The notes beneath the pieces were generated by a model. The model was given only the letters and a program-made list of their open reading frames with translations. It was not told the origin of the DNA and ran no database searches. DNA of 64,000 nucleotides. It comes from Candidatus Omnitrophota bacterium (GTDB lineage: Bacteria > Omnitrophota > Gorgyraeia > JABMRG01). Position numbers and translations under genes: made by a program. The stretch covers positions 24,996 to 88,995 of the forward strand of contig JAQUQI010000005.1 of NCBI GenBank assembly GCA_028716165.1, in the 5' to 3' direction. Shown here piece by piece: positions 9,001 through 31,640 of this stretch. Position 1 is the stretch's first letter. Each line of letters begins with the position of its first letter.

Positions 9001-12000
9001 GGTGTAGCAGTTGATGATGCTTTTCTAGAACGCCTGATGGATCCCAAGACAACCCTTAAACAAACCATAGAAGACATCGCGCAAAAATTAGGCAGAACGC
9101 AAAAGGATATAGAAGAATACATAATTTCAAAATGGATAGTATTTCGTGCTGACGGGTATTTAAAGACACTTCTTTTTGCTGAACGCGCGGGAGAAGCGGC
9201 ATACAGGGTTTTAATAAAGCACAAATTTAAAGACGAAAATGGCCGTGATCCAAGTGAAGCGGAAATAAACGATATTTTGAAAAAACATCTTATGTTTATT
9301 CATGTCCATGAAGATATAGATCCGGATATACAGAACTGGGGTGGAAAGAACCCTAGCGAGATTATTAATATATTATGCGATACAAACAGGCCGCAAGGAA
9401 CCTATACGATAAACGGCTGTTCTTATGCTGATACAGGTAGCGAAAAGAGCTTTAATAGAACATTTACGCCCCAGGATTCAAACAAAATAATTCTTTCAAC
9501 GAAAGAATTTAAAGGTCATGATTATCTTAAGGATGAGGCAAAAAGATGGGTTGTTAAAACCGATAAGTGGTCAGTAACAGCTCGTTTTATAGAAAAGTTT
9601 TTGAAAGACATAGTCAAAGAAGACGCTATGATTGTCAATCTGGATAGGGATCATTTTTTCTATCCATCCGAATTTTTCATGCTCCCGTTTTTAGCGCAAA
9701 GATTTACTTCCGAAGATAATCTTGGTTATCTGACCACAAGGCTTGATATGAGGACGGGGTATGTCGCCCCTACCGGCGCCGCGCATCAGGTAGCAGAAGA
9801 TACATGGAATTTAAGGACATTGCTCGCGGAAGCTCTTTTGGGCGCGTCCTCTTATTACGGCCCGGGATTAGTGCGTTGGAGTGTTATGAGGAGCTGGGGC
9901 GCTTATATGTCTAATATAGAGGACACCGCCGCGGCGCACGAAGCTATAATGGATGGCATGCGCGGCGACCATACTACCTGGATTACCTGGGGCAGGCCAA
10001 GAGAAATGGTCGGCGCTTCTATCCTTGATTTTCAGAACAGGTTTGGCGGACTTGTTATTGATGAATTTCTTTCAGTGCATTATCAGAAATTATTAAAAAG
10101 CGATAAGGCGCATTGGACTGAAAAGCTGACAATATTCCAGAATTTTGATTTTTACTTTAACAAACCATTGATACCGCACTTTAATCTACTGATCTTTTTG
10201 TTCTCATTTTTTATTAATTTTACTCCGTTTTCATTTTTTGCCCTGCCGATATTATTTGTAAGCCTTGGGTATCTGTTTTCACAGGCTATAACATCGGGAG
10301 GCATAAGATTATTCCATGCCAAACAGCCGTTTTTAAAGGCCTGGGCGTCTTATTCAAAAATGTTCTGGGGCCTTGTGTTTACTTTCGTTCCTTTGATACC
10401 CATGCACGGCGAGAAGGCATTAAATGCTTTTAAGGGTACCGCAGGAAGATTCAGCAGCGGTATTAAAGATATTTTCTACCCTGCCGTAAAGTTTAGGGAA
10501 TTATACAATCTTTACAAGCCGTCCATTCGCTGGGGAGTCGCATTATTAGGGATATTATGCTTGGCGCCGACACATCCCTGGGCTATTGTGACCCAGATAT
10601 TTTTTCATATATTCCCTATCGCGTTTATTTTTGGGCCTTTTATGAAAAATGCCCCTGCTAACAAGAAGATAGCGGCCTCTGTTTTTGGCGTAAGCGGAGC
10701 ATTGTTTGCTTTAAACGCCATCTTTGCCTTTATGCCTATGCCTTTTGTAGCGGCAGTGGCTTTAGGTATCATTATTGCCGCAGGGCTGACTGGTAAAGAA
10801 AAATATACCAAGGGTATAACGCACGGGTTATTGGCTATAGTATATTATCTGTTAAGAATAGATGATATCTTTTTTGATCGTCCCGGAGCCCGGGGCCCAG
10901 ATGCAAAAGGTGTAAAAACCAAAGTCAAAGACCGCAAGTATAGCCCCTTAATGACATCATTGCTGATATCAGTATCCCTGCCTTTTTATGTCCTGCGGCT
11001 TGATTTATTAGGAGCATTAATAAAAAAACAGGATTCAAAAGCGGAATTAGGGGCTGGTTTGGAATTGGGCCTTGATCTTTCAAGAAAAATATTTAACCCT
11101 TTGAATGAGTCTTCCGGAAAATTTGCCGCTCTCATGAACGATTCACTTAAAGCGCTTATGTCTCTGGCACAATCCGACCAAAACTTAGACGCTTATTTGC
11201 AAAATTTATTAAGCAAAGAAGATAATATTTCTAAAAATATAAGCATAAGGGTATTAAAGAACTTGCCTGTTAACGCGGCAAGGTATCTAAATGATATGGG
11301 TTCTGTTGAAATAGTTTTAAATGAAAGATTTGTGCTTTCTCTTCTTAATGATTATGACTCATACCCTGTTGTAAAATATATACTTGCCGAACGCCTGTTT
11401 CATGAATTAGGCCATGATAATAAGACTGGAACAGCGCAGGAAGAAGTTGACGAAGAGGCCGAGCTTATAGCCAGGGACTTAGAACTTCACTCCATCATAT
11501 CCTCTGATATCCAAAACGAAATCAATAAATATTTTCAAGATAAAAAACCATCTTTTCCTTCAGGTTATTATTTTGTATTTTTAGACAAACTGTCAAAACT
11601 TGGCGATGGCCAAAGATCCGCGAGTATAAGAGATTATATAAGGCAGAACGGCCTGGCTATAGGCAGGCTTAGTGATGATGAAATAAATGCGCTATCGGTT
11701 GAGGAGCTTGTTCAATTGATAGAGAGTGTTCTTGACATGAGCGGGAAAGAAATAGCGAATAAGTTTTTATTGTATTCGGCCGCGCCTGGTACCGGCAAAG
11801 GCGAAGTTATGGACGCTATCTTTACCGAAGGCAAAGGTAAATACGCTCATCTTGTTGATAAGCTGACACTTTATCACACAAGGTCTCCGCGCGTTAAAAA
11901 AGGTATATCCGAAAAAGATGGCATTGCCTATCATTTTAGAGGAGAGGACGAGCTAAGACAGCTTGAAAAAGAGGGCAAGATTATTACCGCTCTTGTAAAT

Positions 12001-15000
12001 AACCAGCTTCAAGGTATGGCATTAGAGACTTTTTACGAAGAAATTACAATAAGGAAATCCGATTTAGCTGATAGCAAAAAGGCTGTTGTGCTTAATGATG
12101 ATATAAAAATAGAGGAAACCGATGAATACATAAAAATCCGCCGAAAAATACGCGGCCTGAATGATATCTTTAAGGGGCCTAAGCTTGCGATACTTGAGGG
12201 CGGCTATGGATGGTTTGAGAGTATTAAAAAAGACCCGCGTTATAAAGAACAACATAAAGATGTTTTAACAATATTTATATCTCCTTTTACTGATGAGGAA
12301 ATAGGTATAAGGGCTCTTAACAATGCCTGGGTTGATTCAAAATTCAAATTGCCGGAAGAAAAGGCGGCTGCTTATAATGAAATTTTTGTTGTAATTAAGG
12401 AATTGCAAAACGAAATAAACCTTGTCAATGATGCCAATTTACAGCAAAGGGTGATAAGAGCCGTAGAGGATAACGCGCCTTCGCTTAAGGATTCCGCGGC
12501 TTGTCACAATGCTCAAGTAATAGATAGCAATGAATTCTTAAGCAGCTTAAAAATTGATATTAAGTCCCCCGGCGCGATAGATAAGGTCAAAGCCCTCGCG
12601 TATGAAGTAAACAGAAGGCTTTCTATGCGGGACGGCGAAATCAAATTCGCTTATTCTATCAAAGACGACCCCGCCGGTTATGACAGGTATCAGAGGGTGC
12701 TGGAAGGCATTATGCAGATAGTTAATAAAAATGAATATGACACCGTTTTGACGAACACATGGGGCTATACTGATAATGCGAGAAATCAAAACATAGAGAA
12801 ACTAACAATGGAATTTTCAAAAAGCTTTTTCTCGCATGTGGTAAAAGGCCTCCGTGATTCAGCCAAGGCCAGTTCAAAGGCTTTTGCAAAACGAGCATAT
12901 CCTGAGGGGTTATTAGATATGGCAAAAAAATATTTCAATTCAGATATAGAGAAAACCCTTAAGCAATTAAAGGATTGGGCAAAAGCTTATAATGACGCTG
13001 TCAAAAACAAAGAGATACTGGATACGGAAGAAATGACAGTGGAAAGACTGCTTAATATAAAAACAGCAGAAGGCCAGACGGATGCTGTAGAATATTTTCA
13101 TATAATTGATTCTGACGGTAATTATATCGGCATCAAGCCAAGGCCTCTTGCGCATCTTTCTAAAGCAAATGAAGATTGGCACAGGAGCGTATTTGTCATC
13201 GTAGTTGATGAACAAGGCAGGATGCTGGTGCAGACTCGTTCTGCCAATAAAGACCATGCCCCTAATGCCAGAGATATTTCTACGGGCGGGCATATGGGCT
13301 TATTGGATGATGGGCGAAATCTCGCTGATACGACAAAAGAAGTTGCCCTAAAAGAACTTGGGGAAGAGTTATTTAACATAGGCAATCTTAAGGATTATAG
13401 TATTTCTCCTGACAGGCTTTCTATGATAAGCGAGGTAGACGGGCTAAGGCTTTCCGTTCAATATACGACCCCTGTTAAAGGGTGGGATAATGAGCGTGTC
13501 ACTGTGTTTCTTTATTGCGCATCAAAAATGGATATAGAAAGAATTGACGCGGCAGCAAAAGCGATAAGTGACGAAAAGGCTTCATTTACCGCTTTTGAGG
13601 GTGAGGTAGCGGCTATGGAATGGGTTGCAATATCAGATGAATGGAATAAATTTAAAAACATGCCAGATTCTGACAGGCGCGTCAATTATGGGGCCGGTTT
13701 TATAAAGTTGTTTACGGATTACGATCGGGATGTATCGGATCCGGATACTGTTTTAGGAAAGATAGCGCGAATGTCTAATGATCTCAAGGCGCTCTATGCC
13801 AAGTTTTCAGAGTACGAAAAGAGGCTTGGCGAAAGATCTATAGGCCAATTTGTTGGGAAACCATTTGATCCTAACAGGCATATTTATCGTCCGAAGGTAG
13901 GCCCTGATGGCGAGATGCTGCCATTTTCCGGCTTCACAGTAGCTAAGAGGATAACGGAAGGGAAGCTGCGTGAGGCATTAATCGCATTTCAAGAAACAAT
14001 GAAAGAAGAGCTTAAAGCCGCGGGCATGGGCGATGTAGTGGCATTTCTTGATCCTGCCTCGCTTCATATGACTATAGCGGATATTGATCCCAGCCGGTCA
14101 TATCCAAAAGGAACAAGTTTTGAACAAGCCGGACAAAGGTTAGGCCAGATAGACAGCGCTTTTAAAGATATAGGCACGCCCGGCGCAGTACAGTCTACGG
14201 TCCGTGGCTTAGGCCTTGGGAATACGATCTCGGCGCTTGTAAGATTTACTCCAGAAGATCTGGACAAGGCCCTTTTGCTTGAAGGCGCTGTTCAGAAATC
14301 CGCGGATGTGTTCAATAGGCAGTTTACCGGGCATATAAGCTTAGGATATATAGCAAAAGAACCTGAAGATTATGACAAGTTTATCGCGATTCTCCAGAAA
14401 TACGCAGATTATAATTTTGGCGAACTGTTAATTGATACAATTGCTTTATTGCATTTTTCCGACATGAATCATTATACGCCTTTAAAGGAGAAGAATTTGG
14501 ATACAGGTGAGATTACAGACCGTTCCGAAGCAAAAGAGTTTTTGGAGTTTTTAAGAAAAGCCCCCGAAACAGCTCAGGATGAGGTTGTAGGTGGAATTTT
14601 CGGCATAATGACGGCAATTTTGGAAAACGACCCCCGGGCTGGAGATGTCAAGAAAGCCCCCGAAACAGCAGAAAGGCCCGCTGACGAGCTCGTAGATGAA
14701 CTGTACCGCAATAAAGAGCCTATGGGTTCTATACGAAATATTGCCGACTTGGAAAAACTGGCATTGGATAATATTAATGATAATATGGTTGTGGAGCCTA
14801 TAAAAAAGGTTCTTATTGATATTCTTAATGATGAGCAGACGGCCGGAGAGGATTATATTTTTGTTCGCGAAATGGCGGCTTATGCGTTGAGAATATTCGC
14901 GGATATCAATATTATACGTTCGCTGATGACCGTTGCTTCGCTTGAAAACGCGATGAACACTGAAACAGCTGGCAATGAGCTGCCGCCAGCCATTGCGGGC

Positions 15001-15519
15001 CTTGATCTTGCCGGCGTTGCCGATTATTCGGTTGAATATCAGCTTGCCTTATCATTACTGGACTATTCGCCTTCCGGACAGCTGTTTGTTAATAGAGACA
15101 AGCAGGCAGTGATAGTTTACTCGGATGCTCTCAAGCAAAGCAGGGCATTGCAGGATATCCTTAGGGCGTCTGTTCAGGACGAGAGAAGGTTCTATTTCGT
15201 TAATAAGACATCCCTAAGTTCCGGTGAATTTTTAGCAGGGGTCGGCCTGGATACTTTAAATTTTGATAATATTATTGAAGCCGAGGATATGTCCGCAGGG
15301 CAAATAGCCGAAACTGTAATGTCCGAATTGGCTAATCAGCACATAACCCAAGCCCGCGTTTTTGCCGCATTGGATCAGGATTTAATGTCGTGGAAAACAG
15401 CTTCTATTGAAACACTCCTCATGCTTCTAAAGGACAAGAGGTTTGAGATAATATCCGATTACAGCCAGCAGCATGCCGAATATATCAGGACGCATGCCCA
15501 GGCGTTAACAGCAGCATAA
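1..15519 (+). CDS. Giant multidomain membrane protein, 5'-partial (>5144 aa). Contains tandem ~68-aa repeats, Rhs/YD-like repeats, three TM clusters, a guanylate-kinase-like domain with degenerate P-loop, a Nudix/IDI-like domain, and a C-terminal module paralogous to the ORF at 16714.
   Basis: One uninterrupted frame from base 1 to the stop at 15517-15519. The ORF track begins at a TTG at 85, but codons 1-84 have no stop, so the true start is upstream. Hydrophobic helices lie at about nt 7040-7140, 7990-8420 and 10150-10960. GK-like motifs are APGTGKG ... LYHTRSPR..DGIAYHF ... ILEGGYGW ... IFISPFTDEEIG. The IDI/Nudix-like stretch is HRSVFVIVVDEQGRMLVQTRS...GGH...KELGEEL. Confidence 0.85.
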   Translation, partial: TYVFNFDAETGRVTTGELKRYADSGRPILIALEYTPGKEGKSPSFKARVFGSQQDMEDAQDLLTSGSQIVLVSKADSFVVHEVQKAGEGYVARLDGNGAPVVWIHAEYNKGNPDVERSGAVSASIQDMRLIADIQSVSKKLRLKGPDGNDITGLAQITDANNLESVLNKDLGEPVQVSTELPDHKYVIMAYNSGTKQVLPFYGKSTFDVYTQFYNSPEHEKEFELLNLLKIGNIIYTDDNSSWLGGFEPQRGGVRRAKITMFNDNKGNEYPVKIGHDAQTRDDLYAYGVLEIDIRDDSFNPTGSWVYYLNKQGLPIDRLPHEEACNLRNVSINFSGKNENAKLLINDIAYGQNAHDKFGAFLPFAADVYDVSGGAPRPVGIHIDDRGRNRIYFEFTSQATQSADGTWSVPALAFCDMYDDQNVYLGQYAFNSIVKWTEGEDGAKAYTYEIGNALSWGVEAQSGPYAGNKFVYILDSTRKKDDGSYIISNEMLGKLGTTERGSHILSGKDLDTLGIDKNSKAVSRILRAAQIYQAGFEAGDPSRVMLFDSSYPGREKEAVAMSQYPGGELEMVIRGPNSKEIARFTFGDSDSYDTNKFGLYRKIVEDFQTDQSEKIKQMALSEGIITIPVKLGNYYIGHRYNNETSLYEHGMFKTLADLAKAGYAIYDEITAAQIFRLDSDTPAKIEFFANDGSSLGRAITDQKLSLSVFDKGGEKIGENVYEFVFDRLTGNVVIGKFLYFIDTKKAEEMLGKMLEALREDPVALEAFNLLTGAGIKDSGKLSQAQLDVLYTLIFKNDLGEFHENAADTEKTLEGLRLASSMLAALRGNQGALEAFNALTNAGFANEGYLADSQLAVLYGMIYDGEGEKHKHAGDPKTTMEGIILAKKALDQLRANPSELAAFNLIAGVNIKLSGPLTAEELTALYTLVYDSDGDFYRDSAGYAYTPIESIKFAGPMLKALRLDLEALKAFNLFTGVNIQPTGKLSQSQINALYGLIYGANGDFQPNATDPIATIEGLKLAVAMLDSLRSNPEALKLFNLFTGINITLQGALNGKQIDALYGLIYTKDADGKTILKDNADDPASAIQDIITFYNNVVSYVIAISANPNAMALANSAFGLGLTPNMTAGNITQAQLKIFSNSDLGILYDEGGVLRDIDTVVMLFKRMGEIYANWDSQAQSALRIFSGVDIAPGLDSLNSDQIKAFNTLLFDRNGNLYLTDAEFDAQTVVANLKRVIYKVGDTYVTENGLAAYSLNSNSPGVKPLLLAQVTKTGKHDRMYIIDPSIPNTDNVYAEILEGDIDLDAGTINLKFVVNVGRDSAGNRISSVTNYDGREVQRGTLAGFIDSSGGYIPSDVYIDDLSDIAAVRMKITTSLFGQQWYEEYDFNGNIVRTIKPYPETGQAEVVKYNVKENGSFPDSRSYLYEYDNNLNDIKTDKPVMDLRESKIIGYTDMNDPIAFVHDSVTDSYWQEIIDPVGRVKAKVIGDYNAAAGIFSPIAIEIPSYDGYIGASAIGSSKMYEYSKANGYNTAAYAGSKVLIETGKIEIITIDGRVCVRSFYFNNKTNVSWQEIKDARGNIIAKLYQYPDSGSSGYRASFVEIMQYEPGIGSIEGIAQSGKLYLFTGREDLRDFSISQYADKPVLTESYLVDHSGKAITTVEALKMDSLVYQYENKVSKLVWQEERDNRGRLIAKYTGVSSRDDQGNLTGFSRKVVEKITPTGILGVMHISATSNSYLYETYQGEKGKHLSEYRPEFAYVSAQIINDSGNAVDSLAGIAQDNTVTYRYVNHKTHLVWEEVRDGFGRIIRRYDGETLGDKSSPLTEPFKRVLVTDQYYEGLIGDFGLSTSSEVYSLDESGKKVGNPIDQSELLSNKFEKLDFEQLSATDSFGALKSIFDEQGRIYYQGSRAYKRSDIRGEGLLEYREIKNNTGSIEERFEGYKDPSGKFVSNLKRYFFYPDSDIWRSFSIAQKTILTIFVDGKEIIFSVANRTSFDEQTGDISYSCKKGKGIINFPQITYTNLEQSLDLLFEDAKGFEYVTYAWQEIKNNRGWLVQTREGFGLDDKNFPMGVPRYITFLKGYSLDIPISLEAHIYKYDDNAGERLDGQVIRTKQTESDYRHGTKVGSLQGLHFTDNIAVYDVNDTRINRKSVNNSGYRMDGRLAWEIHAGKMFRDKVYLTYFNELECADYSARLVGVLSPIAGSKLNITNRLAEIKQEPYKTHYTIMIPSKPGSYIVWDKTPDQAKNVWFAVDRFMDGDEIDTEKVSSKGFTRAVENRNIFTAPSEDSALNLAEQDGKYFSEGEFLYEIKNKYTPVLWRSYHENSIREYIGVQFNKHIKNSWLYNAIVESNKRDTLSPIVITTAVSLAAITFLLPLALFLFTYVLSYVHFKKLGKKQIADTKSSGLPGEGGDIASGRAPSAQAPGHASAKVSPGAPSVPDQEIRVRVADINRHLYLNKAFTDYLISLYYKTDEELFALLDAYYPDTHSEKPAMLSERYKYSMVLNNNTVSPDSKQRAKYDFVDRVFTKPISYLMLAIMIDQAEKWDWMNKGELDKGDRITGGLADNFWPFTDRDMKRLFEYFKADGKDPILELGLYKYLGATTLQQWYMDANIKALKEKADKNTTEKQAKANVKKKKDHKLEKGKLIEEAIKPAKEWLAKRYEYEGLHQTVYPMKVNKIINLVWRVFALGGTAGLIAMAITSFSSFGVIGLVFTGLIWSFVLVETHKMLQYAQFHKNWLQGLRTMFKARADYKGPLSEAELKVKKNFFKAYFGWMGTYAAVIVGFSLLYSVGSIPWFGWLAAIPILVISLRESFRSWWYIFTESAATAISRNQRLDSLKRYEDIGKQELDRIRRNEYLKDVFKDVVIEATLSVESGFHLISKQEEQALIKVLNDPKAKKLPDLKSPHAKQEIIKWFNTILMFDEDEFKRIYDQTKLDELNPSIFKGTGKKRVLPTRDFLDAEDGETKDAKGVITEYTPAGIIKSGFYVFKEEFKESWEIFLRDDIFNGVAVDDAFLERLMDPKTTLKQTIEDIAQKLGRTQKDIEEYIISKWIVFRADGYLKTLLFAERAGEAAYRVLIKHKFKDENGRDPSEAEINDILKKHLMFIHVHEDIDPDIQNWGGKNPSEIINILCDTNRPQGTYTINGCSYADTGSEKSFNRTFTPQDSNKIILSTKEFKGHDYLKDEAKRWVVKTDKWSVTARFIEKFLKDIVKEDAMIVNLDRDHFFYPSEFFMLPFLAQRFTSEDNLGYLTTRLDMRTGYVAPTGAAHQVAEDTWNLRTLLAEALLGASSYYGPGLVRWSVMRSWGAYMSNIEDTAAAHEAIMDGMRGDHTTWITWGRPREMVGASILDFQNRFGGLVIDEFLSVHYQKLLKSDKAHWTEKLTIFQNFDFYFNKPLIPHFNLLIFLFSFFINFTPFSFFALPILFVSLGYLFSQAITSGGIRLFHAKQPFLKAWASYSKMFWGLVFTFVPLIPMHGEKALNAFKGTAGRFSSGIKDIFYPAVKFRELYNLYKPSIRWGVALLGILCLAPTHPWAIVTQIFFHIFPIAFIFGPFMKNAPANKKIAASVFGVSGALFALNAIFAFMPMPFVAAVALGIIIAAGLTGKEKYTKGITHGLLAIVYYLLRIDDIFFDRPGARGPDAKGVKTKVKDRKYSPLMTSLLISVSLPFYVLRLDLLGALIKKQDSKAELGAGLELGLDLSRKIFNPLNESSGKFAALMNDSLKALMSLAQSDQNLDAYLQNLLSKEDNISKNISIRVLKNLPVNAARYLNDMGSVEIVLNERFVLSLLNDYDSYPVVKYILAERLFHELGHDNKTGTAQEEVDEEAELIARDLELHSIISSDIQNEINKYFQDKKPSFPSGYYFVFLDKLSKLGDGQRSASIRDYIRQNGLAIGRLSDDEINALSVEELVQLIESVLDMSGKEIANKFLLYSAAPGTGKGEVMDAIFTEGKGKYAHLVDKLTLYHTRSPRVKKGISEKDGIAYHFRGEDELRQLEKEGKIITALVNNQLQGMALETFYEEITIRKSDLADSKKAVVLNDDIKIEETDEYIKIRRKIRGLNDIFKGPKLAILEGGYGWFESIKKDPRYKEQHKDVLTIFISPFTDEEIGIRALNNAWVDSKFKLPEEKAAAYNEIFVVIKELQNEINLVNDANLQQRVIRAVEDNAPSLKDSAACHNAQVIDSNEFLSSLKIDIKSPGAIDKVKALAYEVNRRLSMRDGEIKFAYSIKDDPAGYDRYQRVLEGIMQIVNKNEYDTVLTNTWGYTDNARNQNIEKLTMEFSKSFFSHVVKGLRDSAKASSKAFAKRAYPEGLLDMAKKYFNSDIEKTLKQLKDWAKAYNDAVKNKEILDTEEMTVERLLNIKTAEGQTDAVEYFHIIDSDGNYIGIKPRPLAHLSKANEDWHRSVFVIVVDEQGRMLVQTRSANKDHAPNARDISTGGHMGLLDDGRNLADTTKEVALKELGEELFNIGNLKDYSISPDRLSMISEVDGLRLSVQYTTPVKGWDNERVTVFLYCASKMDIERIDAAAKAISDEKASFTAFEGEVAAMEWVAISDEWNKFKNMPDSDRRVNYGAGFIKLFTDYDRDVSDPDTVLGKIARMSNDLKALYAKFSEYEKRLGERSIGQFVGKPFDPNRHIYRPKVGPDGEMLPFSGFTVAKRITEGKLREALIAFQETMKEELKAAGMGDVVAFLDPASLHMTIADIDPSRSYPKGTSFEQAGQRLGQIDSAFKDIGTPGAVQSTVRGLGLGNTISALVRFTPEDLDKALLLEGAVQKSADVFNRQFTGHISLGYIAKEPEDYDKFIAILQKYADYNFGELLIDTIALLHFSDMNHYTPLKEKNLDTGEITDRSEAKEFLEFLRKAPETAQDEVVGGIFGIMTAILENDPRAGDVKKAPETAERPADELVDELYRNKEPMGSIRNIADLEKLALDNINDNMVVEPIKKVLIDILNDEQTAGEDYIFVREMAAYALRIFADINIIRSLMTVASLENAMNTETAGNELPPAIAGLDLAGVADYSVEYQLALSLLDYSPSGQLFVNRDKQAVIVYSDALKQSRALQDILRASVQDERRFYFVNKTSLSSGEFLAGVGLDTLNFDNIIEAEDMSAGQIAETVMSELANQHITQARVFAALDQDLMSWKTASIETLLMLLKDKRFEIISDYSQQHAEYIRTHAQALTAA
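2233..3700 (+). repeat. In-frame tandem array inside the giant gene: 5 clear and 2 degenerate copies of a ~201-204 nt (~68 aa) unit, consensus ..ALEAFNLxTGxNI..G.Ls..Q...LY.LIY..DGDF......DP....EGL.LA..ML..LR.NP
   Basis: ALEAFN / ELAAFN / ALKAFN / ALKLFN recur at nt ~2287, 2491, 2692, 2893 and 3094 with a 201-204 nt period. Two further decayed copies sit near 3330 and 3540-3650. Confidence 0.7.
4380..6160 (+). repeat. Dispersed Rhs/YD-like repeats inside the giant gene, motif [SVA]W(Q/E)E..D..G(R/N)(L/I)I..Y, at least 5 copies
   Basis: SYWQEIIDPVGRVKAKV (~4390); SWQEIKDARGNIIAKLYQY (~4691); VWQEERDNRGRLIAKYTG (~5025); VWEEVRDGFGRIIRRYDGE (~5375); AWQEIKNNRGWLVQT (~6110). These resemble the YD-repeat core D..GRL....Y, flanked by Y.YD/Y.YEN motifs. 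Confidence 0.4.
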
Positions 15520-15566: not shown

Positions 15567-16694
15567 ATGAGAAGGAGCATAAAAATATTTGTTTTATACG
15601 CAGGCCTTGCCATTATATCCATGGCAAGCCCCGCTTATTCTTGGCAAAATTTTTTATGCGCCTTAAGGCCTTTATCGCTGGCGCAATCGCAAAGGATTGA
15701 ATCAGATATAAAGTCCGCCTTCTTGTCAATGCGTATTTCAGATATTGTGTTTATCGCGGATAAAGATGGGACTTTGTCAAAGCCTAATGAGCCTGTCCGC
15801 GGTTCCACGGTTAACCTTATAAGTGAAATTTTTAAAATGTACGGCCGTTCGCATATCGTTATCTGCACAGGGGGTATACTGGAAGACAGCGAGAATAATC
15901 TTATAAAGCCTTTGGAGGAAATGATAAAGTCTGGTGATTCCAGTTGGTTTGAGCGTTTAACATATTATTTTATGGCTGGACTGGGTAAAATATCTTGGAA
16001 TAAGCAAGGAATACGAACGATTGAGTATTTTGGAAAACCTTTTTCAGCAGATGACCAGATGTTTATCGTAAGAAATCTGGCTAAATCTCTGGCAGGCAAT
16101 ATAGAGGGCATGCGCCTGCCTGAAAGCATTGATAGGGCCGAAAGCTTTGACGCCTTTAGTAAAATATTTGATGAATTTGTAGCAGAAAATAAAAGCGTTC
16201 TCGGCCATATTGAGATTGCCAACGGCATGGGCCGGCAGTTTACCATAGAGTTTAAAAAATCGTCCGAGAAACAGGCATTGCCTGAATTGCAAAATTCTGA
16301 TTTTACCCGAAAGGTCGCGGAAACTTTTAAAGAACTTCTTGCACAGCGCCCTAACCTCCAGAATCTGCATGTAAGATACGGTGATACATATGTGGATTGC
16401 AGTCCGGTGGATAAAAAAGATGCCATAGAATATTTTTTAAGCGAGAAAAATTTTGAAAGCCCTCTTATTGTGGCGGTTGGAGACGGTAGTAATGATTATG
16501 GGTTTTTATTTAAAGCCGCAGACGATAGGACGAAGCTATCTTTTTTTGTAGGCAAAGGCCATGAAGGCTTGCCCGATCATGTGACTCTATGGCAGACGCC
16601 CGGCCCGGCTGGAACGGAAGAGATACTGTCGTCAATAGTCAAGTCAGTCAAAAGCTCATTTGACATGGAATATAATATAAGAATTTGCGCCTAA
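15567..16694 (+). CDS. Secreted HAD-superfamily (subfamily IIB, Cof/sugar-phosphatase-like) hydrolase
   Basis: N-terminal signal peptide followed by FLCALRPLSL. HAD motif I is DKDGTL (nt ~15760) and motif IV is GDGSNDYGF near the C-terminus. Confidence 0.6.
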   Translation: MRRSIKIFVLYAGLAIISMASPAYSWQNFLCALRPLSLAQSQRIESDIKSAFLSMRISDIVFIADKDGTLSKPNEPVRGSTVNLISEIFKMYGRSHIVICTGGILEDSENNLIKPLEEMIKSGDSSWFERLTYYFMAGLGKISWNKQGIRTIEYFGKPFSADDQMFIVRNLAKSLAGNIEGMRLPESIDRAESFDAFSKIFDEFVAENKSVLGHIEIANGMGRQFTIEFKKSSEKQALPELQNSDFTRKVAETFKELLAQRPNLQNLHVRYGDTYVDCSPVDKKDAIEYFLSEKNFESPLIVAVGDGSNDYGFLFKAADDRTKLSFFVGKGHEGLPDHVTLWQTPGPAGTEEILSSIVKSVKSSFDMEYNIRICA

Positions 16695-16713
16695 TAATAA
16701 AAAGGAGGCCTAT

Positions 16714-19044
16714 ATGCACGGATTAAGGGTATTTAAAAAATCTTTGATATTTGTGTTAATATGCTGTTTTTTTATCAATCAGCAGCTTTTGGCCTGCGAA
16801 TTTTTTTGCCTAAGGCCCGCGTCTGTTAATAACTCCAACACCCCTCTTGTTTTACAGCAACCGGATGATTTAAACAAATTATCTGTAAAAGAACTTGAGG
16901 CCAAACTCCAAAATATTAAGTTGATTAAGCTGAAGGAGCTGAATAAATTGACACCGTCCAGCAAGGAGGAGCTTAAAGATCTCGCTGGCAGGGTAGCTGA
17001 AATGGGCGATTACTTGAGTGCGGTTATACAAAAAGAGTTATTGGGAAATGGTAAAAAATATGGCAATATTATGGAAAAATTTATGCTATTTTCAGCAGGT
17101 CCCGGAACTGGTAAGGATTATGTTTTTTCTAAAACATTTGGAAGAGAAAAAGAAAAAAATGCAAATAAAAAATGGAAGTATCCACACTATACAGATGGGA
17201 GCTTCTTTAAGTTAGTTGAAAAATTGATATTGTATCATTCAAGGCCGTTAAGAACAAAAGAAAATGAAAAAGACGGCTGGGAGTATAATTTTGACACAAG
17301 ACTTGATCATAATCGTATAAACACATTAGAAAATAAAGGAAAAATTAAAACCGCAACAGTAAACAGGCAGTTACAGGGTATGGCAATAAACGGATTTGAT
17401 GAGAAAGGCGTGGTAATAGAGAATGTTATCAATCCTGCAGATTTTAAAGCAGGTGATAAGGTAACAAAAACTATTGAATTTTTGGATGGAGAAAATCTCA
17501 AACAAGATGTTTTGGTTAAAAGGCAAGGCTTCGAGCAAAACCTGAAAATAACCACAGGTATAAAAGATGATGAAATAGGAGATGGCAAGCCCGGCGTCTT
17601 TATTGCGGGTGATATTATTGAAGAGGTTTCTCATAAAGATGTAACAGTTAAAAGGCCTGTAAAAGGCATAATGGATATTATTGATGGGCCCAAACTTGGG
17701 GTGGTTGAGGTAGGATATGGCTGGTTTAGGATGCTTACAGGTCCTCAATCTCCGACGAAGGATGTGTTCAAAATTTTTATAGCACCGTTTGACGAAAAAG
17801 AGATGCGATACATGACTAATGCAAGGAAATGGATTGAGCGCAGATTTACCAGCTATAATGAAAGAGCTTATGCCCATTTGTATATTTCATATAAGATGCA
17901 AGAAGCTAAGAAAGAATTATCAAACTTTAAATTCAAAGAAATAAGAGAATTAAAAAAAGACATAAAAGAACGCCTTAAAAAATTAAATAAAGATGAGGAT
18001 CTTATTGAAAAAGAGTTGGCTGATATTGCAGGCAAGGTTATGGAGTCTGGTATTAAAAAATTTGGATCAGACAAACAGACATATGCGAATCGTTTATTGG
18101 AATACGCAAAGCTTATAGAGAAAGAAGATTTTATAGTGCATCTGAATGAAAGATTGGAAAGCGATTTTGGTGATCCAAATGGAATAACGGACGTTAATCA
18201 AATAAGAGAAGCGAGATTGCTTGCTTACGAGATTAACAGAAGGACCCTTGCAAGGGATAGAGCTGTAGGGTTATCAAATGATGACAAACAGCCTGTTGAG
18301 TATGATAGATATAATAGATTGCTTGAAGGCATAATCCAGATTATGCATCGTAACGAATATGCCCAAAAAGGCGGTTTTGTTGTAATTAATAGGTGGGTAT
18401 TTGATCAAAGCAAGCAACAGGAATATGATGATGTTTTAAAAATACAATTTGCCGGAGCGTTTTTCTCAAATTTGATCGGAAAAATACAAGAAAAAATAAA
18501 ATCTCCTTCAGCAGGCATTGTCCCGGAGCGCGCGCCGGATTATGATGAGCAGTACATTTTAGCCGACGGGCTTCTTCGCTATTTCCCGGAGGGCATAATA
18601 AATGTCCCCGCGGAAAATCAAGCCGTGATAGTTTATTCAGATTCGCTCGCGGAAAGCGCGGCATTGCAGGATATAATCAGAAAGTCGTCAGCAGATGGCA
18701 GGAAATTTTATCTTGTCAATAAACAGGATTCCGTTTCCGCCGAAGATTTTTTAAGAAGCCTTAATATTGACAGGGATATATTTGAAAGCAATGTTTTTTT
18801 GCAAAACTCGCTTTCAGCCGATCAACTGGCGCTTAATATAGCGGCCGTGCTTAATAAAAACGGTATCCGCCAGGGCAGGGTGTTTGCCAGCGCGCAAGAC
18901 GATCTCATTGCCTGGAGCAGACAGGGCCTTATTGAAGCCCTTGTAATGCTACTAAAGGACAAGAAGTTTGAGATAATATCGGATTACAGCCAGCAGCATA
19001 CCGAATATATCAGGACGCATGTCGAGGCGCTGAAAGCGGCATAA
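16714..19044 (+). CDS. Secreted/lipoprotein 776-aa paralog of the giant protein's C-terminal region: GK-like domain with degenerate P-loop plus conserved C-terminal module
   Basis: RBS AAAGGAGG 6 nt upstream of the start. Signal peptide with a possible lipobox LLAC, then EFFCLRPASV. GPGTGKD...LYHSRPLR..DGWEYNF...VEVGYGW...IFIAPFDEKEM aligns with the giant protein's GK-like segment. The last ~150 aa align with the giant protein's C-terminus. Confidence 0.7.
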   Translation: MHGLRVFKKSLIFVLICCFFINQQLLACEFFCLRPASVNNSNTPLVLQQPDDLNKLSVKELEAKLQNIKLIKLKELNKLTPSSKEELKDLAGRVAEMGDYLSAVIQKELLGNGKKYGNIMEKFMLFSAGPGTGKDYVFSKTFGREKEKNANKKWKYPHYTDGSFFKLVEKLILYHSRPLRTKENEKDGWEYNFDTRLDHNRINTLENKGKIKTATVNRQLQGMAINGFDEKGVVIENVINPADFKAGDKVTKTIEFLDGENLKQDVLVKRQGFEQNLKITTGIKDDEIGDGKPGVFIAGDIIEEVSHKDVTVKRPVKGIMDIIDGPKLGVVEVGYGWFRMLTGPQSPTKDVFKIFIAPFDEKEMRYMTNARKWIERRFTSYNERAYAHLYISYKMQEAKKELSNFKFKEIRELKKDIKERLKKLNKDEDLIEKELADIAGKVMESGIKKFGSDKQTYANRLLEYAKLIEKEDFIVHLNERLESDFGDPNGITDVNQIREARLLAYEINRRTLARDRAVGLSNDDKQPVEYDRYNRLLEGIIQIMHRNEYAQKGGFVVINRWVFDQSKQQEYDDVLKIQFAGAFFSNLIGKIQEKIKSPSAGIVPERAPDYDEQYILADGLLRYFPEGIINVPAENQAVIVYSDSLAESAALQDIIRKSSADGRKFYLVNKQDSVSAEDFLRSLNIDRDIFESNVFLQNSLSADQLALNIAAVLNKNGIRQGRVFASAQDDLIAWSRQGLIEALVMLLKDKKFEIISDYSQQHTEYIRTHVEALKAA

Positions 19045-19217
19045 TAAAACCTTAAAGGGCCTTACGCGCCCGGCAGATTATCGCGGTGATATTATGCGGT
19101 TTGATATCCTGTATTGATACCGTTTTCTATATCAGAAAATCGGATTATACCGTGCTTTTTACCAACAATCGCTAAAATTATTTATCAAAAACCGGATAGG
19201 ACACACTAAATAAACAT

Positions 19218-22200
19218 ATGGGTGTGAGAAAAGTTTCGCTAAAAATATCCGCCGTTTTTTTAATGGCAATAACGCTGGCCATATGGGCCAGGCCCGCCTT
19301 TTCTCTGTCCTGCCTTAGGCCGTCATCCCTGGCCGCGTCTAATGATACGGGTATAGTCCTGGATCTGCGGCCTGCGAATGGAGCGAATTTTAACAGTCAA
19401 AAAGCGCTCGCTGATTTTTTACATAAACGCGGGCTTATGCCGCAAGGCGTAAAAAGAAAGACCGCGCGCCTGGCAATCAGGGAAATGGCAAAGGCCCTTG
19501 AGACATACAGATTTGCCCAAGGTTTTAAATATCCTCCGTCAGATGAAGAGATCCTGAACTCGCTTGAGGATACCAACCTGTTCGATCCTTATAGAATCAG
19601 CCATAAATTACCGGTAACAATGGTTTTCAGGAAAGGCGCTTACAACGGAGATTACAAGAATAATATATCAAGAATTATTTTTACCCTAAGCCACGATTTT
19701 TGCGCGTTTGCTTCTATATGCGGGGTTGAAACGGAAGATAATGATATTATTTCTCTTGCCAGCCTGCATTATTGCGAGTTTGGCGACATGCTGTATGATA
19801 TGAGCGATGGAGTGCTTACTTCATTTCTCAAGTCTTGCGTTAGCCAGGCTGTATTTGAAGATACCACCAATAGCTTATGGGGTGTCGGTTTTAACGGGGC
19901 CGCCTGTTGTATTATAAGAAACCCATTGTCTCATAGGGAGAAAAAGGAGATTATCAAGCAATTCGCGGCATCTTTTTCAAACATTGGGATTTTAGGAAAA
20001 ACATTAATACTTAAGCCCGGTAAAAATACGGACGAAGCAGACATGGCTGTTATACAGGCCCGCGCCAACAGCGTTTATGGTTTTGCCAATAAGTCTTCTG
20101 CGGGAAAAGGCAAAGTGTATTTTCCTGTTGCCACATCAAGGGCTTTTGATAAAAACAGTTTCCCCCACACATTATGGAAAATAAGGGCGGCCGGTATAGT
20201 AGAGGCCTTAAACGCGGTTTTGCGCTCTAAAGGCATAAAACCTGAAAATGCCACTGTGATATTATGCGGGAAAACGGTTATAGCGCGTGGGGTTTTTGAT
20301 ATATTATTGTCGCAGAAGACAAAGGTAGTGGGGATATATGACGGTGACCATTGTCTGTATAACAAAAAAGGCATTGTGTCCCAGTATGGCAACAAAAAGG
20401 ATGACAATGTGATATTGGCAGACCTTTTAAGCATGGAGGCCACTGCCCTGGTTTCAACAGACATTTTTTCTCTTATCAGTTCAAAAAATATGCCCAGGCT
20501 TTGCGTGGATGTTATTATTGACGGCATATATCCGGCAATAAATCCTGAAACGTCAGATGCTCAAGCATTACCTGGCAAGATCACATATATACCCGCGTGC
20601 TTAAGCTGTGGCAGCAGCGCCTATGCCAGCGCCAGCGAGTTTTTTAACAGCAATGCCTCCGGTATGAACATAAAAGACCCGAGGATGCACCTTGAAAGAA
20701 GCATATTCAATATTGTCAATTCACTTGTTTTCTTAACAGACCGGGGTATCGTTCAAGGTTCTGTATACAATATATTAACAAAAAAAGCCGAAGAAATACG
20801 GAGCTTAAGGAACAGGTTCATAGAAGTTCCTACGGAAGAAGTCATAGAAGAGGCTGAATTTGAAATGCTTTACGGCTTGCCGGAAAGAATAGCCTTTTTG
20901 CGCGCTGCCACAAATATTGCCCTGACAAAAGTATTGTTTTCCGGTATCAGCTCCAATGCTCTTATGGATATTATTATGTCCGCTCGCTCCGATATGCTTG
21001 AAAAGAGAACGGCTGTTTATATATTAGGTAAAAAACAGGACCTTTCGTCAGTTGCTGAATTAATGCGGATAATATCGGATGAGGATGAGGACATAGACTT
21101 GAGGATAAACGCTATAGAGGCTGTCGGAAACATGAGGGCCGGAAGCGCGATAGAGCTCTTGCTTAAAATATGCAAACAAAAGAGTAAAGGTACGGATTTG
21201 TCCGGTTGGGCATCCTGGGCCCTTGAAAAGATGGGAGTCGCATTAAACGGGCAGAAAAGCCCGGTTAAAGAAGGAATATCATTCAGCCGCGCGCTGGAAG
21301 AATTGCCGAAAAAGGCGGCGGACGCTTGGTTTAATAATATACAAAAAGAGGGCAATAAGCCTGTTATGATCGGTTTTTCGGGGTATTCGGCAAGCGGTAA
21401 ATCGTACTTCGCGTCTTCTTTTGTCAAAAAATTGAAACTGATTATTGCGTCCCAACGGCGCAGATTAGATAAAGCTCCGGATAAAGCTGTGCATGAGATG
21501 CCCGCTATATACCGGCTTGATATGGATGAATACCTTATTCCAAAAAATGAGCGTTTGGCGCGCGCGAAAAGTTTAGGTTATGAGTTGTCAATTTTTATTA
21601 AATACGAAATAAAAAGATACTATGAAGACATGAAGGCCTTTGCCGCGGGCAAGCCTATATATGTCCCGCATTTTAATCAGGTAACGCGCCAGCGCCAGCG
21701 TTTGGCTCAAAGCCAGATTGACCTGGCAAGGATTGCTTTGGCGCGGGGCGCCGAAAGCCATGAACGCTATATAGACGGCCGAAAACATACTATTGTTTAT
21801 AGCCCTGCGATCAGCAGTGAAATGGGTATAATGGCTTATATAGACCTTGAGTCAGGGGATATCCTTACGCGTTTAGACCCGGAGAACAATATCCTTATAG
21901 TTGAGGGCATATTGGCCCTTACGAGCGAATCTGTCAACAGCTTGTTTTATGAAAGCATTTTTATAAAAGCGCCATGGACATTAAGATACTTGCGGGACAT
22001 TGAGCGTTATATCGCAACGGGTAAATACGCTTCTTTGACAGTGCAGCAGGTAAAAGAGAAGTTTGAGAGAAAGCGCGCTGCGGAAGAAACGCGTTTTATA
22101 TCCGCCCAGGAATCTATAAGTTCGCGTGTTGTGGATACCGCGGACAGCCCAACTGGCGCTTATGTTGAAGCCTTTACCGGAGCTTTAGACCTTTACAGGC

Positions 22201-23510
22201 AATGGCGCTTGGAGATATCCGCGGAAAAGGCAGGGCTATCCGAACAAAAAGAAAAAGTCAAGGGCCTCTTCATGGATATTGTCCGCCGGCATATTATTGA
22301 TAAAAATGTTTTAGAGAAACTCTGGACAAGGTTCTGCCAGAATACCCTTTTGCTGGAAAGAAGCGCTCTTTTTGACCTTGTTTCGCGCGTGATTGAAGAG
22401 CAGAACAGAAAATTATGGCCGTCATTATCAAAAACCGCAAAAAAGACTGTGATAAGTGGTATTCTGGAAAGCCGCGGCCTTGATTGCCAGGATTTTGACA
22501 TATTATGGTTTTCAGTATCTGTCCCGGATGAAATCAGGAAATACACCAGTACCCTGCCTGCCGGCGCGCCGGAGAATGGACAGATATGCTATTTTGGCCC
22601 GGATTCTATAAAGGGCCGGGACATAAAACTTATTATGGCTGATTTTGACCGCACCCTTTCTTCAGACCCATTTGCCATCGGGGATGATATCATCAGAGAG
22701 ATTGAAAAATTTCTTGCCTCCGGCGGCATATTTGTTGTCAACACAGGAAGGACGACAGACAGGATGCGCACGGTATTTGACAAAAGGATAGCGCCTGAAT
22801 TAAGAAAAAACATGATCTTCATGGGAGAATTTTCATCAATTATAGCCGGATACGATGAGAACGGCACTTTTTATACTGACTACCAATCCTCATTAAATGA
22901 TGATTTTCTCCTTAGCAAGGCCTTTACAGATAAGGTCATTGAAGACCTGCGTCTTAGGCTCGGTGTTAAAGCGGCATTGGAAGATGATTATAATCCCGTT
23001 GAACATGACGTGAAAATAATAAAGAACGGTAAACAGGCGACCATTACGGTATCATATGAAGATTGCCCGCGGATAAAATGCAAAACAAAGGACATGCGTT
23101 TTTTGCTTGAGAATGTTTTAAAGTCTTTTGGAAGGAGCGATTTCCATTTGTATGAAACATCCAGGTGCATTGATATATCCTTTAGGTCAAAGGCTTTTGG
23201 GCTTGATTGGGCGCTTGACAGATTCGGCCTGGATCCCGGGCAAATTGTAATCATAGGAGATAGCGCGGGATTATTTAAAAACGACAGGCCTATGTTAACG
23301 CATTTACCCCAGGCTTTAAATGTTTATGTAGGGATTGAAGATATCAATTCCCTGCCCAGCGGTATATTATATGGCAAAATGCCTTCAGAGGCAGGGGTTG
23401 TAGAAATACTGCGGGCAATTACAGGCGCCGGAAACGAAGTTAAAGGCCCCGGTCGCGTTACAATATTTGATAAGCGCCAGTTCGCGGCCGGCATAATGGC
23501 CGCTGCCTGA
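19218..23510 (+). CDS. Secreted 1430-aa multidomain protein: degenerate Glu/Leu/Phe/Val-dehydrogenase-like region, HEAT (PBS-lyase-like) repeats, PRK/uridine-kinase-like P-loop domain, C-terminal HAD-IIB phosphatase domain
   Basis: Signal peptide then LSCLRPSSLAAS. The GDH-like stretch (~19670-20420) has the GGGKGG lysine motif replaced by GAACCI and the Rossmann GFGNVG replaced by GKTVIARG. HEAT is LRINAIEAVGNMRAGSAIELL. The P-loop is GFSGYSASGKSYF (nt ~21370-21410). HAD motifs are DFDRTL (nt ~22640) and GDSAGLFKND. Confidence 0.65.
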   Translation: MGVRKVSLKISAVFLMAITLAIWARPAFSLSCLRPSSLAASNDTGIVLDLRPANGANFNSQKALADFLHKRGLMPQGVKRKTARLAIREMAKALETYRFAQGFKYPPSDEEILNSLEDTNLFDPYRISHKLPVTMVFRKGAYNGDYKNNISRIIFTLSHDFCAFASICGVETEDNDIISLASLHYCEFGDMLYDMSDGVLTSFLKSCVSQAVFEDTTNSLWGVGFNGAACCIIRNPLSHREKKEIIKQFAASFSNIGILGKTLILKPGKNTDEADMAVIQARANSVYGFANKSSAGKGKVYFPVATSRAFDKNSFPHTLWKIRAAGIVEALNAVLRSKGIKPENATVILCGKTVIARGVFDILLSQKTKVVGIYDGDHCLYNKKGIVSQYGNKKDDNVILADLLSMEATALVSTDIFSLISSKNMPRLCVDVIIDGIYPAINPETSDAQALPGKITYIPACLSCGSSAYASASEFFNSNASGMNIKDPRMHLERSIFNIVNSLVFLTDRGIVQGSVYNILTKKAEEIRSLRNRFIEVPTEEVIEEAEFEMLYGLPERIAFLRAATNIALTKVLFSGISSNALMDIIMSARSDMLEKRTAVYILGKKQDLSSVAELMRIISDEDEDIDLRINAIEAVGNMRAGSAIELLLKICKQKSKGTDLSGWASWALEKMGVALNGQKSPVKEGISFSRALEELPKKAADAWFNNIQKEGNKPVMIGFSGYSASGKSYFASSFVKKLKLIIASQRRRLDKAPDKAVHEMPAIYRLDMDEYLIPKNERLARAKSLGYELSIFIKYEIKRYYEDMKAFAAGKPIYVPHFNQVTRQRQRLAQSQIDLARIALARGAESHERYIDGRKHTIVYSPAISSEMGIMAYIDLESGDILTRLDPENNILIVEGILALTSESVNSLFYESIFIKAPWTLRYLRDIERYIATGKYASLTVQQVKEKFERKRAAEETRFISAQESISSRVVDTADSPTGAYVEAFTGALDLYRQWRLEISAEKAGLSEQKEKVKGLFMDIVRRHIIDKNVLEKLWTRFCQNTLLLERSALFDLVSRVIEEQNRKLWPSLSKTAKKTVISGILESRGLDCQDFDILWFSVSVPDEIRKYTSTLPAGAPENGQICYFGPDSIKGRDIKLIMADFDRTLSSDPFAIGDDIIREIEKFLASGGIFVVNTGRTTDRMRTVFDKRIAPELRKNMIFMGEFSSIIAGYDENGTFYTDYQSSLNDDFLLSKAFTDKVIEDLRLRLGVKAALEDDYNPVEHDVKIIKNGKQATITVSYEDCPRIKCKTKDMRFLLENVLKSFGRSDFHLYETSRCIDISFRSKAFGLDWALDRFGLDPGQIVIIGDSAGLFKNDRPMLTHLPQALNVYVGIEDINSLPSGILYGKMPSEAGVVEILRAITGAGNEVKGPGRVTIFDKRQFAAGIMAAA

Positions 23511-31624: not shown

Positions 31625-31640
31625 TAAAAAAGGAGGAGAC

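Follow-up and report, generated by a model that had tools for sequence, protein, structure and literature searches.

A short peptide tag with the core L-R-P-x-S follows the secretion-type leader of three consecutive proteins encoded beside a giant gene in a Candidatus Omnitrophota bacterium (GTDB lineage Bacteria; Omnitrophota; Gorgyraeia; JABMRG01). The stretch analyzed, hereafter the window, comprises 64,000 nucleotides of GenBank assembly GCA_028716165.1 (contig JAQUQI010000005.1, positions 24,996 to 88,995 of the forward strand); coordinates given without a locus name count from its first letter. The motif exists, is under selection at the protein level, is exclusive to the clusters of giant genes and recurs across loci, and a SecA-like module is present in an ortholog of the giant protein. 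By sequence comparison and analogy with known export systems, it is plausible, though far from assured, that the motif serves as a sorting tag specific to this lineage, carried by the accessory enzymes of a giant-gene locus resembling those of Archaeovorin, with the SecA-like module of the giant as its reader. The finding would then be that of a substrate tag placed beside the signal peptide together with a dedicated SecA paralog, possibly a private export route for a set of enzymes.

The giant gene is already open where the window starts and occupies 1..15519 (+ strand; C-terminal 5172 codons, no stop codon in 1-84), its product ending in ...HAQALTAA. Directly 3′ of it lie three genes on the same strand, at 15567, 16714 and 19218, which match the NCBI proteins PHV77_03805 and PHV77_03810 of a ‘Candidatus Omnitrophica bacterium’ metagenome-assembled genome (MAG). 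The first open reading frame, ORF1 (15567..16694, +; 375 aa, ending in ...NIRICA), encodes a leader, the tag and a HAD-type phosphatase (Hydrolase_3). ORF2 (16714..19044, +; 776 aa, ending in ...EALKAA) encodes a leader, the tag, a P-loop module resembling guanylate kinase and a C-terminal domain termed here type A; Pfam and PDB searches with this protein gave no match. ORF3 (19218..23510, +; 1430 aa, ending in ...GIMAAA) combines, in this order, a leader, the tag, an ELFV-dehydrogenase-like region, HEAT repeats, a PRK/uridine-kinase domain and a C-terminal HAD-like domain. The tag leucine is residue 33 from the initiator methionine in all three. The core reads L33-R-P-L-S37 in ORF1 (15663..15677, +; context FLCA-LRPLS-LAQS, peptide FLCALRPLSLAQS), L33-R-P-A-S37 in ORF2 (16810..16824, +; context EFFC-LRPAS-VNNS, peptide FFCLRPASVNNS) and L33-R-P-S-S37 in ORF3 (19314..19328, +; context SLSC-LRPSS-LAAS, peptide LSCLRPSSLAAS).

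A first-pass annotation, made from the letters alone, had drawn attention to a motif shared by three consecutive leader-bearing proteins, and this is borne out: the pattern C.?LRP.S has exactly three matches in the six-frame translation of the window, each N-terminal and starting at residues 31-33, and LRP.S occurs in no other real ORF there. The motif is absent from the ∼15 other leader-bearing proteins of the window that were checked (lipoproteins, solute-binding and pilin-like proteins). The description of the three as otherwise unrelated is correct only in part. Two modules of the giant (window 11700-15519) have paralogous counterparts in ORF2, with 29% identity over the guanylate-kinase-like module that carries the P-loop SAGPGTGK and 50% identity to the last ∼177 residues of the giant, and ORF1 and ORF3 show weak HAD-like similarity at their C-termini. 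The modules common to ORF2 and the giant suggest fission or duplication of modules between the giant and its neighbors.

Signal peptides and cleavage sites were judged by a heuristic combining hydropathy and charge. In ORF1 to ORF3, the tag leucine lies 8-13 residues past a hydrophobic leader whose n-region is basic and whose end is AxA-like. By this heuristic, the n-regions of the leaders hold 2.2 K/R on average and the h-regions have 14 residues, and AxA-like sites such as SMA↓S, LLA↓C, AFS↓L, ISA↓E, VSA↓Y and VYA↓D can be made out. An AlphaFold2 model of ORF1, computed from a 2-sequence alignment, is unusable (mean predicted local distance difference test score 41.6) and hints only at a helix starting directly after the tag.

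The comparison with orthologs reveals what is conserved. A protein search against a database of 5.8 billion proteins, among whose entries the giant itself does not figure, returned matches only in the window’s own MAG and in one relative, at 71-73% identity. In the leaders of the relative (VLYVLRPLSLAQS, EFFTLRPASVNSS and ARDCLRPESSVIA), the tag region reads VLYV-LRPLS-LAQS for ORF1, EFFT-LRPAS-VNSS for ORF2 and ARDC-LRPES-SVIA for ORF3. Outside the tag, the leader of ORF3 has diverged completely, and its tag arginine is encoded by CGG in the relative and by AGG in the window. Across the six leaders, the invariant columns are L, R, P and S only (alignment A1). The window copies also hold short palindromes of the form GCCT(N1-2)AGGC (GCCTTAAGGC, GCCTAAGGC and GCCTTAGGC), which are broken in the relative where the amino acids of the tag are kept. 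Since L-R-P-x-S is retained while cysteine, leader, codons and palindromes change, selection acts on the peptide; the tag is under protein-level and not DNA-level selection. The position of the cysteine is occupied in the relative by Y (ORF1), T (ORF2) and C (ORF3), so that the residue is kept in one of three proteins, and the LLAC of ORF2 has become VLAR. The cysteine is therefore no part of the signal and the motif is no lipobox. The first-pass annotation had rightly set the motif apart from lipoboxes; its exact pattern, C-[A]-L-R-P-x-S-[LV]-[AN] with an obligatory cysteine, does not hold and gives way to a general motif, [STAC]-L-R-[P/A/S/I/C]-x-[S/A].

This general form emerges from other loci. 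An exhaustive HMMER search with ORF3 led to distant multi-domain homologs, several of which begin with a leader and LRP or LRA. The loci compared were the contigs of ORF3 homologs together with 78 loci around a conserved downstream lipoprotein gene, none of them selected by the motif. The same arrangement of leader and tag is found on ∼18 different proteins at at least eight Omnitrophota giant-gene loci, with proline as the preferred residue after L-R (then A, S, I or C) and a stretch enriched in A, S and T thereafter. At L007, for example, the tag occurs on a glycogen-synthase-like GT5 protein (DSLRPCSAARS; SAEHDSLRPCSAARS), on a 330-aa protein (SQYLRAPSTAS) and on P0008 (LSALRPQKT), an ORF3 homolog with ELFV_dehydrog, PRK and methyltransferase domains. 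L010 provides IYYLRPSST and, on PPDK, TGTLRPLMS; L011 provides YTLRPPLQ and KALRPQLN. L013 and L014 contribute a PGM/PMM (NNTLRILASA), a HAD protein (PALRAASAS) and the tags IGSLRAKAS, TATLRPVAS and YSTLRPQSN. An NDK-UDPGP-PGM fusion (NSTLRCISSA) and TNTLRSKAS are found at L015, and TDALRSVSL at L016.

Cluster membership being set by gene position and not by the motif, the pattern [STACYV]LR..[SA] within 26 aa past the h-region is present in 17 of 18 cluster proteins and in none of 649 non-redundant background ORFs with signal-peptide-like starts (Fisher test, 8e-33); this refined pattern had been derived from the very data set tested. For the LRP pattern given a priori, the counts are 11/18 and 0/649, respectively. 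In 20 of 21 leaders, the tag leucine stands 29-36 residues from the methionine; a spacing of ∼33 residues is close to the length of the ribosomal exit tunnel. The 21 leaders use all six leucine codons and all six arginine codons. Residues A, S and T make up a fraction of 0.33 of the 15 positions after L-R; at the equivalent place in background leaders the value is 0.21 (sd 0.12), and over the remainder of the tagged proteins it is 0.18. The argument that an early-mature arginine is unusual for Sec substrates was dropped, since a crude background set has more, not fewer, basic residues after the h-region. The observation is thus real and not due to chance, and the interpretation first attached to it is partly supported. 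As to a dedicated signal for sorting, anchoring or processing, what stands is protein-level selection, restriction to the clusters and recurrence on unrelated enzymes; processing, anchoring and export themselves are suggested by comparison with other systems.

Against this background, a reading without any dedicated signal, in which the motif stems from chance, from a DNA-level feature (such as a translational pause or the GCCT(N)AGGC palindrome) or from a leader spread by recent duplication, is very improbable and largely refuted by the codon and ortholog data. It draws on the palindromes of the window copies, on the leaders of ORF1 and ORF3, which align weakly (16/36 identities) and could share ancestry, and on the distance of ∼33 codons between start and leucine, which comes close to the length of the ribosomal tunnel. 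Yet the palindromes are lost in the relative without loss of the amino acids and every leucine and arginine codon is in use, which rules out a DNA-level element; leaders otherwise diverged beyond recognition keep L-R invariant in ~18 families; background leaders are devoid of the motif; and the replacement of proline by A, S, I or C goes against a proline-dependent ribosome stall. Arrest peptides of the SecM/RAPP type appear unlikely as well, the motif lying too near the signal peptide for force sensing and its proline being replaceable.

Other known N-terminal signals fit no better. A lipobox read by signal peptidase II is excluded by the Tyr (ORF1) and Thr (ORF2) found at the position of the cysteine in the orthologs and by the variable residue before L-R (T, S, A, C or Y depending on the family); the true lipoproteins of the window (LSGC, IAGC) are without the tag. 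A twin-arginine translocation signal is excluded as well: RR occurs only in ORF1 (MRRSIK), whose ortholog reads MMRGVI, and in no other leader. The leaders do not match the class III pilin-like signal (G↓F/M-T-L-I-E), of which true examples in the background (KGFTLIEVLV) look different. LEPR-XLL is an N-terminal domain of Planctomycetota, an N-terminal motif of the Planctomycetes–Verrucomicrobia–Chlamydiae (PVC) group with the signature LEPRxLL. Six leaders scanned against NCBIfam at E<=10 gave no hit to this domain, and the order of residues differs (L-R-P versus L-E-P-R).

The tagged proteins bear a second common mark at their other end. Nearly all of them, and the giants, terminate in a hydrophobic residue followed by x-[SA]-[AS]-A, as in ALTAA, ALKAA, IMAAA, ALIAA, VLISA, LDSAA, IDAAA, GIQAA and ALISA. 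This C-terminal -[SA]-[AS]-A tag is as specific as the N-terminal one and was missed by the first-pass annotation: only 4 of 794 background ORFs end in [ASC]A. In the window, the mark is carried on the + strand by the giant (L-T-A-A, 15505..15516), ORF2 (L-K-A-A, 19030..19041) and ORF3 (M-A-A-A, 23496..23507), each followed by the stop codon, by an ORF starting at 54143 (ALISA, 55436..55447) and, as a variant, by ORF1 (R-I-C-A then stop, 16680..16691; RTCA in the ortholog). Outside the window it is found at L001, L007, L010, L013-L016 and L018. The tail alanine codons and the stop codons vary between genes. In part, the tail closes a conserved C-terminal domain of two types, type A in the giant and ORF2 (50% identity) and type B in ORF 54143, and it also occurs on proteins with neither. 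Small apolar tails such as the ssrA ...LAA are read by PDZ-domain tail-specific proteases and by ClpX. The present tail shares their small apolar character, but it is genome-encoded on a defined set of proteins. No matching S41 protease was found in the window, and the only PDZ domain seen there belongs to a GspC-like protein (T2SSC and PDZ_2; 47572-48273), encoded among pilin-like and secretin-like genes. The Ala-Ala tail could conceivably be read by this PDZ domain.

The candidate reader of the N-terminal tag lies in the giant. Its upstream part, which falls outside the window, was read from an ortholog on a related metagenome contig (L006, 77% identical; 8417 aa), whose sequence begins ∼455 nt (∼152 aa) downstream of the predicted start of the ortholog. 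At ∼3100-4750 of L006, and thus in the same gene, lie a SecA-like ATPase and a preprotein cross-linking domain (Pfam SecA_DEAD 2.9e-14, SecA_PP_bind 3.6e-10, P-loop_SecA 4.2e-8). In a PDB search, the module aligns to residues 89-588 of E. coli SecA (E 4e-28), with sequences resembling Walker A/B and motif VI. The transmembrane segments of the giant are clustered, and ∼9 hydrophobic helices directly follow the SecA-like module; no SecY was matched by Pfam in the giant pieces scanned. The ortholog further contains a GGDEF domain (Pfam 4e-38). Two guesses made by eye, a GT48 glucan-synthase-like region in the transmembrane-flanked part and a TraB/TIKI-like fold for the N-terminal domain, were unsupported in Pfam and PDB sequence searches and are not claimed. 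Divergent SecA domains in most Omnitrophota giants have been reported by West-Roberts et al. (2023; bioRxiv 10.1101/2023.11.21.568195), who proposed that they act in secretion of the giant ‘or of accessory proteins’. The text searched in that preprint mentions signal peptides only in passing, and no account of an Ala-Ala tag or of leader-bearing enzymes between the giant and the sugar-uptake genes was found in it; nor was a post-signal-peptide or substrate motif found described there or in a 2026 complete-genome preprint, and no report of the tag came to light.

A mechanism can be proposed on this basis. Each accessory protein begins with what looks like an ordinary Sec-type leader of two to three basic residues, ∼14 hydrophobic residues and an AxA-like end, followed three to twelve residues later by [STAC]-L-R-[P>A,S,I,C]-x-[S/A] and then by a stretch rich in Ala, Ser and Thr. 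This early-mature segment, together with the signal peptide, would be read by the SecA-like ATPase and preprotein-binding module of the giant, located directly ahead of the ∼9-helix membrane bundle. Export of the co-encoded enzymes would then take place at the giant, with which they would remain, and would bypass the housekeeping route, and the -[SA]-[AS]-A carboxy terminus would serve as a second address mark for the same set of proteins. An export machinery tied to the giant had already been suspected in the first-pass annotation; the SecA-like ATPase and preprotein-binding domain of the ortholog now give it a candidate. Cleavage of the leader, export of the proteins and recognition by the SecA-like module are inferred from sequence.

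Several points weigh against this scheme. The SecA-like module was seen in a single ortholog, outside the window, the other tagged loci covering the giants only in their downstream parts. The proposed link between tag and SecA derives from co-location in one locus. According to West-Roberts et al. (2023; bioRxiv 10.1101/2023.11.21.568195), the SecA-like domains are devoid of scaffold and wing domains, and they may serve only the giant itself. Two LRP-tagged proteins at L011 lack the Ala-Ala tail and have housekeeping genes as neighbors, and the 10 kb upstream of them contain no giant. Conversely, the tail is found on a leaderless PilZ protein (L007 4869-5243, GIQAA); therefore, the two marks need not have one reader. 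The enrichment of the refined motif was tested on the data that defined it. Finally, the cargo requires nucleoside triphosphates (NTPs), phosphoenolpyruvate (PEP) or NAD(P), and its export is hard to rationalize.

Parallels with known systems are instructive in this respect. In the accessory Sec system of Firmicutes, an accessory Sec transport (AST) segment adjoining the signal peptide, rich in A, S and T, is required for targeting to the SecA2 machinery (PMC6973325). The AST segment of SecA2/SecY2 substrates such as the serine-rich repeat adhesins of the GspB type, which commits a small co-encoded set of proteins to a dedicated SecA paralog, resembles the A/S/T-enriched early-mature stretch described here, and a divergent SecA-like motor is encoded in the same locus here too, in the very gene of the giant. 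The two systems differ in phylum and envelope. The accessory Sec signal peptide measures ∼90 aa with a Gly-rich core, whereas the leaders here have 20-25 aa; its cargo consists of glycosylated adhesins, whereas metabolic enzymes with an extra C-terminal tag are found here; no SecY2 or Asp proteins were found, and the SecA-like unit is a domain within a giant membrane protein. To our knowledge, a sharp L-R core at a fixed position has not been described for AST. The likeness is thus one of working principle and not of membership. A further parallel is offered by the giant loci of the Archaeovorin type (West-Roberts et al., 2023), with a multi-transmembrane giant, often GGDEF, a divergent SecA-like module, and PilZ, solute-binding protein (SBP) transporters and glycoside hydrolases downstream; judged by its gene content, the window locus has this layout. 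In PVC and other Gram-negative bacteria, secondary SecA_DEAD proteins are extra, truncated SecA-like proteins in conserved modules with secretion components (Kamneva et al. 2015, PMC4452313). They differ from the present module in being stand-alone proteins, linked to type I secretion-like genes, with no substrate tag known. The sortase-type tripartite sorting signals LPXTG, PEP-CTERM and GlyGly-CTERM are also short, lineage-specific motifs next to a transmembrane helix and a basic cluster on unrelated proteins, and they are tied to a dedicated machine. In these, the order is C-terminal motif-helix-basic and a transpeptidase cuts, whereas the order here is mirrored, basic-helix-motif at the N-terminus; no sortase-like enzyme was seen at the locus.

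Besides the tag, a linker motif, K-x-S-S-[AS]-G, occurs between domains and, in many leaders, 20-35 aa past the L-R tag. It has 36 matches in 31 kaa of proteins of the system as compared with 22 in 368 kaa of background (∼19-fold), at sites that include ORF3 aa 293 (about 20094-20111), ORF 54143 aa 172 and the loci L007, L010, L013-L016 and L018. It may be a site of polyprotein processing, the sequence S-S-A↓G fitting the -3,-1 rule and thus a cleavage of the signal-peptidase or LexA type.

Such sites also bear on the question of when the tag acts. It is possible, if rather doubtful, that it acts after export: the proteins would cross by the ordinary Sec route and lose their leader, and the exposed xx[ST]LR[P]xx[SA] segment would be read outside the cytoplasm by a docking site on the extracytoplasmic part of the giant, by the nearby apparatus resembling a type II secretion system (T2SS) or by a protease that trims pro-segments. 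The leaders indeed resemble canonical signals for Sec and signal peptidase I and would place the tag at mature residues ∼4-12, and both the A/S-x-A/S patterns after L-R and the later K-x-S-S-[AS]-G fit the -3,-1 rule. Post-export tags have precedents in the N22 segment of CsgA, for CsgG, and in the lipoprotein export signal of Bacteroidota. The GspC-like T2SS protein with its PDZ domain lies in the window, and T2SS-like loci beside giants are on record (West-Roberts et al., 2023; bioRxiv 10.1101/2023.11.21.568195). However, the cluster revealed no candidate for a periplasmic reader or protease, K-x-S-S-[AS]-G is missing from the leaders of ORF1 to ORF3, and substrates of T2SS normally have no linear signal. 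The near-fixed distance of the tag to the methionine and the h-region fits better with co-recognition together with the signal peptide, as in the favored scheme.

The nature of the cargo raises another question. Among the tagged or tail-marked proteins, Pfam identifies HAD phosphatase, PRK/uridine kinase, ELFV dehydrogenase, SAM methyltransferases, GT5 glycogen synthase, PGM/PMM, NDK, UDP-glucose pyrophosphorylase, PPDK, PFK, transaldolase, adenylate kinase and PHP, which are cytoplasmic-type, nucleotide-dependent enzymes. Central-metabolism enzymes with leaders or tails are observed at L015 (1972-7803), L010 (3-2447 and 6688-11736), L018 (3-3665) and L014 (2-6337), among them the NDK-UDPGP-PGM fusion, PPDK, phosphofructokinase, transaldolase and an adenylate kinase that also has a PHP domain. 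As a set, these enzymes would interconvert sugar phosphates, make UDP-glucose and regenerate NTPs. In another lineage, P0010 (5865 aa) has HAD, ELFV, HEAT and PRK modules fused within a giant, which makes the stand-alone genes look as though they arose by fission of giant modules. The genes for P0010 and P0116 are placed at contig ends or have no tagged neighbors. Distant ELFV-domain proteins (P0093, P0116; L093 865-4623) have a signal-peptide-like start followed by L-A-P-x-S (KLAPESI, DLAPSLV), and they end in LICA and AIAA. In these proteins, the two-tag scheme may exist in a further lineage with Arg replaced by Ala.

Enzymes of this kind could also be held at the membrane. The hydrophobic N-terminus would then be an uncleaved anchor and L-R a juxtamembrane contact, the enzymes being fission products of giant modules that are tethered as a membrane-bound metabolon by helix, L-R and Ala-Ala tail. 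This is unlikely, even though tethering would account for hydrophobic N-termini on NTP-dependent enzymes and finds support in the module fusions of P0010, in the duplication of two giant modules by ORF2 and in the 2026 preprint, in which Omnitrophota giants are reported to be overwhelmingly membrane-anchored multi-enzyme proteins. The charges (basic n-region, acidic or neutral flank past the helix) predict an N-in/C-out orientation, so that the enzymes would still lie outside the cytoplasm, and short h-regions of ∼14 residues with AxA-like ends are typical of cleaved signals. Nor is the pattern repeated at the internal transmembrane helices of the giants: no LR[PA] follows an internal hydrophobic segment in six large proteins, giants included, and the notion of the tag as a repeated unit of helix and L-R within giants was rejected.

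The sorting-tag reading may be carried further, to a view of the giant as a private platform for export and assembly. Its SecA-like motor and ∼9-helix bundle would form a dedicated translocon that reads the signal peptide and L-R and moves a set of cargo (PGM, UDPGP, NDK, PFK, PPDK, adenylate kinase, glycogen-synthase-like GT, HAD phosphatases, uridine- and guanylate-kinase-like modules) out of the cytoplasm. A PDZ domain, T2SS or a tail-specific protease would recognize the Ala-Ala tail as a further address. The outcome would be an extracytoplasmic or prey-injected metabolism in an ultra-small predatory bacterium. In this extended form, the proposal is improbable.

Beyond ORF3, the locus continues with a CBM-like lipoprotein, GH2_C-type hydrolases, an ABC sugar importer (SBP at 25933), PilZ (32305), a GH94 phosphorylase and T2SS- or pilus-like genes. 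Directly downstream of the tagged cluster, a highly conserved lipoprotein domain of ∼200 aa (NHYIPSGWMGD, YWQNP) occurs at 23759-24433 and 31596-32243. It has 563 matches in GTDB genomes, is common in MAGs of Omnitrophota and of Endomicrobia/Elusimicrobiota, and its gene mostly adjoins a GH2_C-like hydrolase and an ABC sugar importer; some of the MAGs with this domain bear the record label ‘uncultured Planctomycetia’. Farther along the window, a stand-alone paralog of the N-terminal domain of the giant is encoded at 52578..54146 (+; 30% identity, E 7e-60, to the start of the giant ortholog in L006), with a signal-peptide-like N-terminus and without the L-R tag. It overlaps ORF 54143 (54143..55450, +), whose product has an N-terminal transmembrane segment and the type-B C-terminal domain and ends in ...SALISA. 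The pair resembles a split miniature of the two ends of the giant.

For the divergent SecA-like domains of Omnitrophota giants, the tag gives the guess of ‘accessory proteins’ concrete candidate substrates and cis-signals. It also provides a rule for annotating metagenomes: a signal peptide, [STAC]LR..[SA] at about residue 33 and an -[SA][AS]A end. That enzymes of glycolysis, nucleotide-sugar synthesis and NTP regeneration carry secretion-type leaders is surprising. If they are not exported, signal-peptide predictors would systematically misread a new kind of membrane-tethering leader in Omnitrophota; if they truly are, metabolism would take place outside the cytoplasm or within prey cells.

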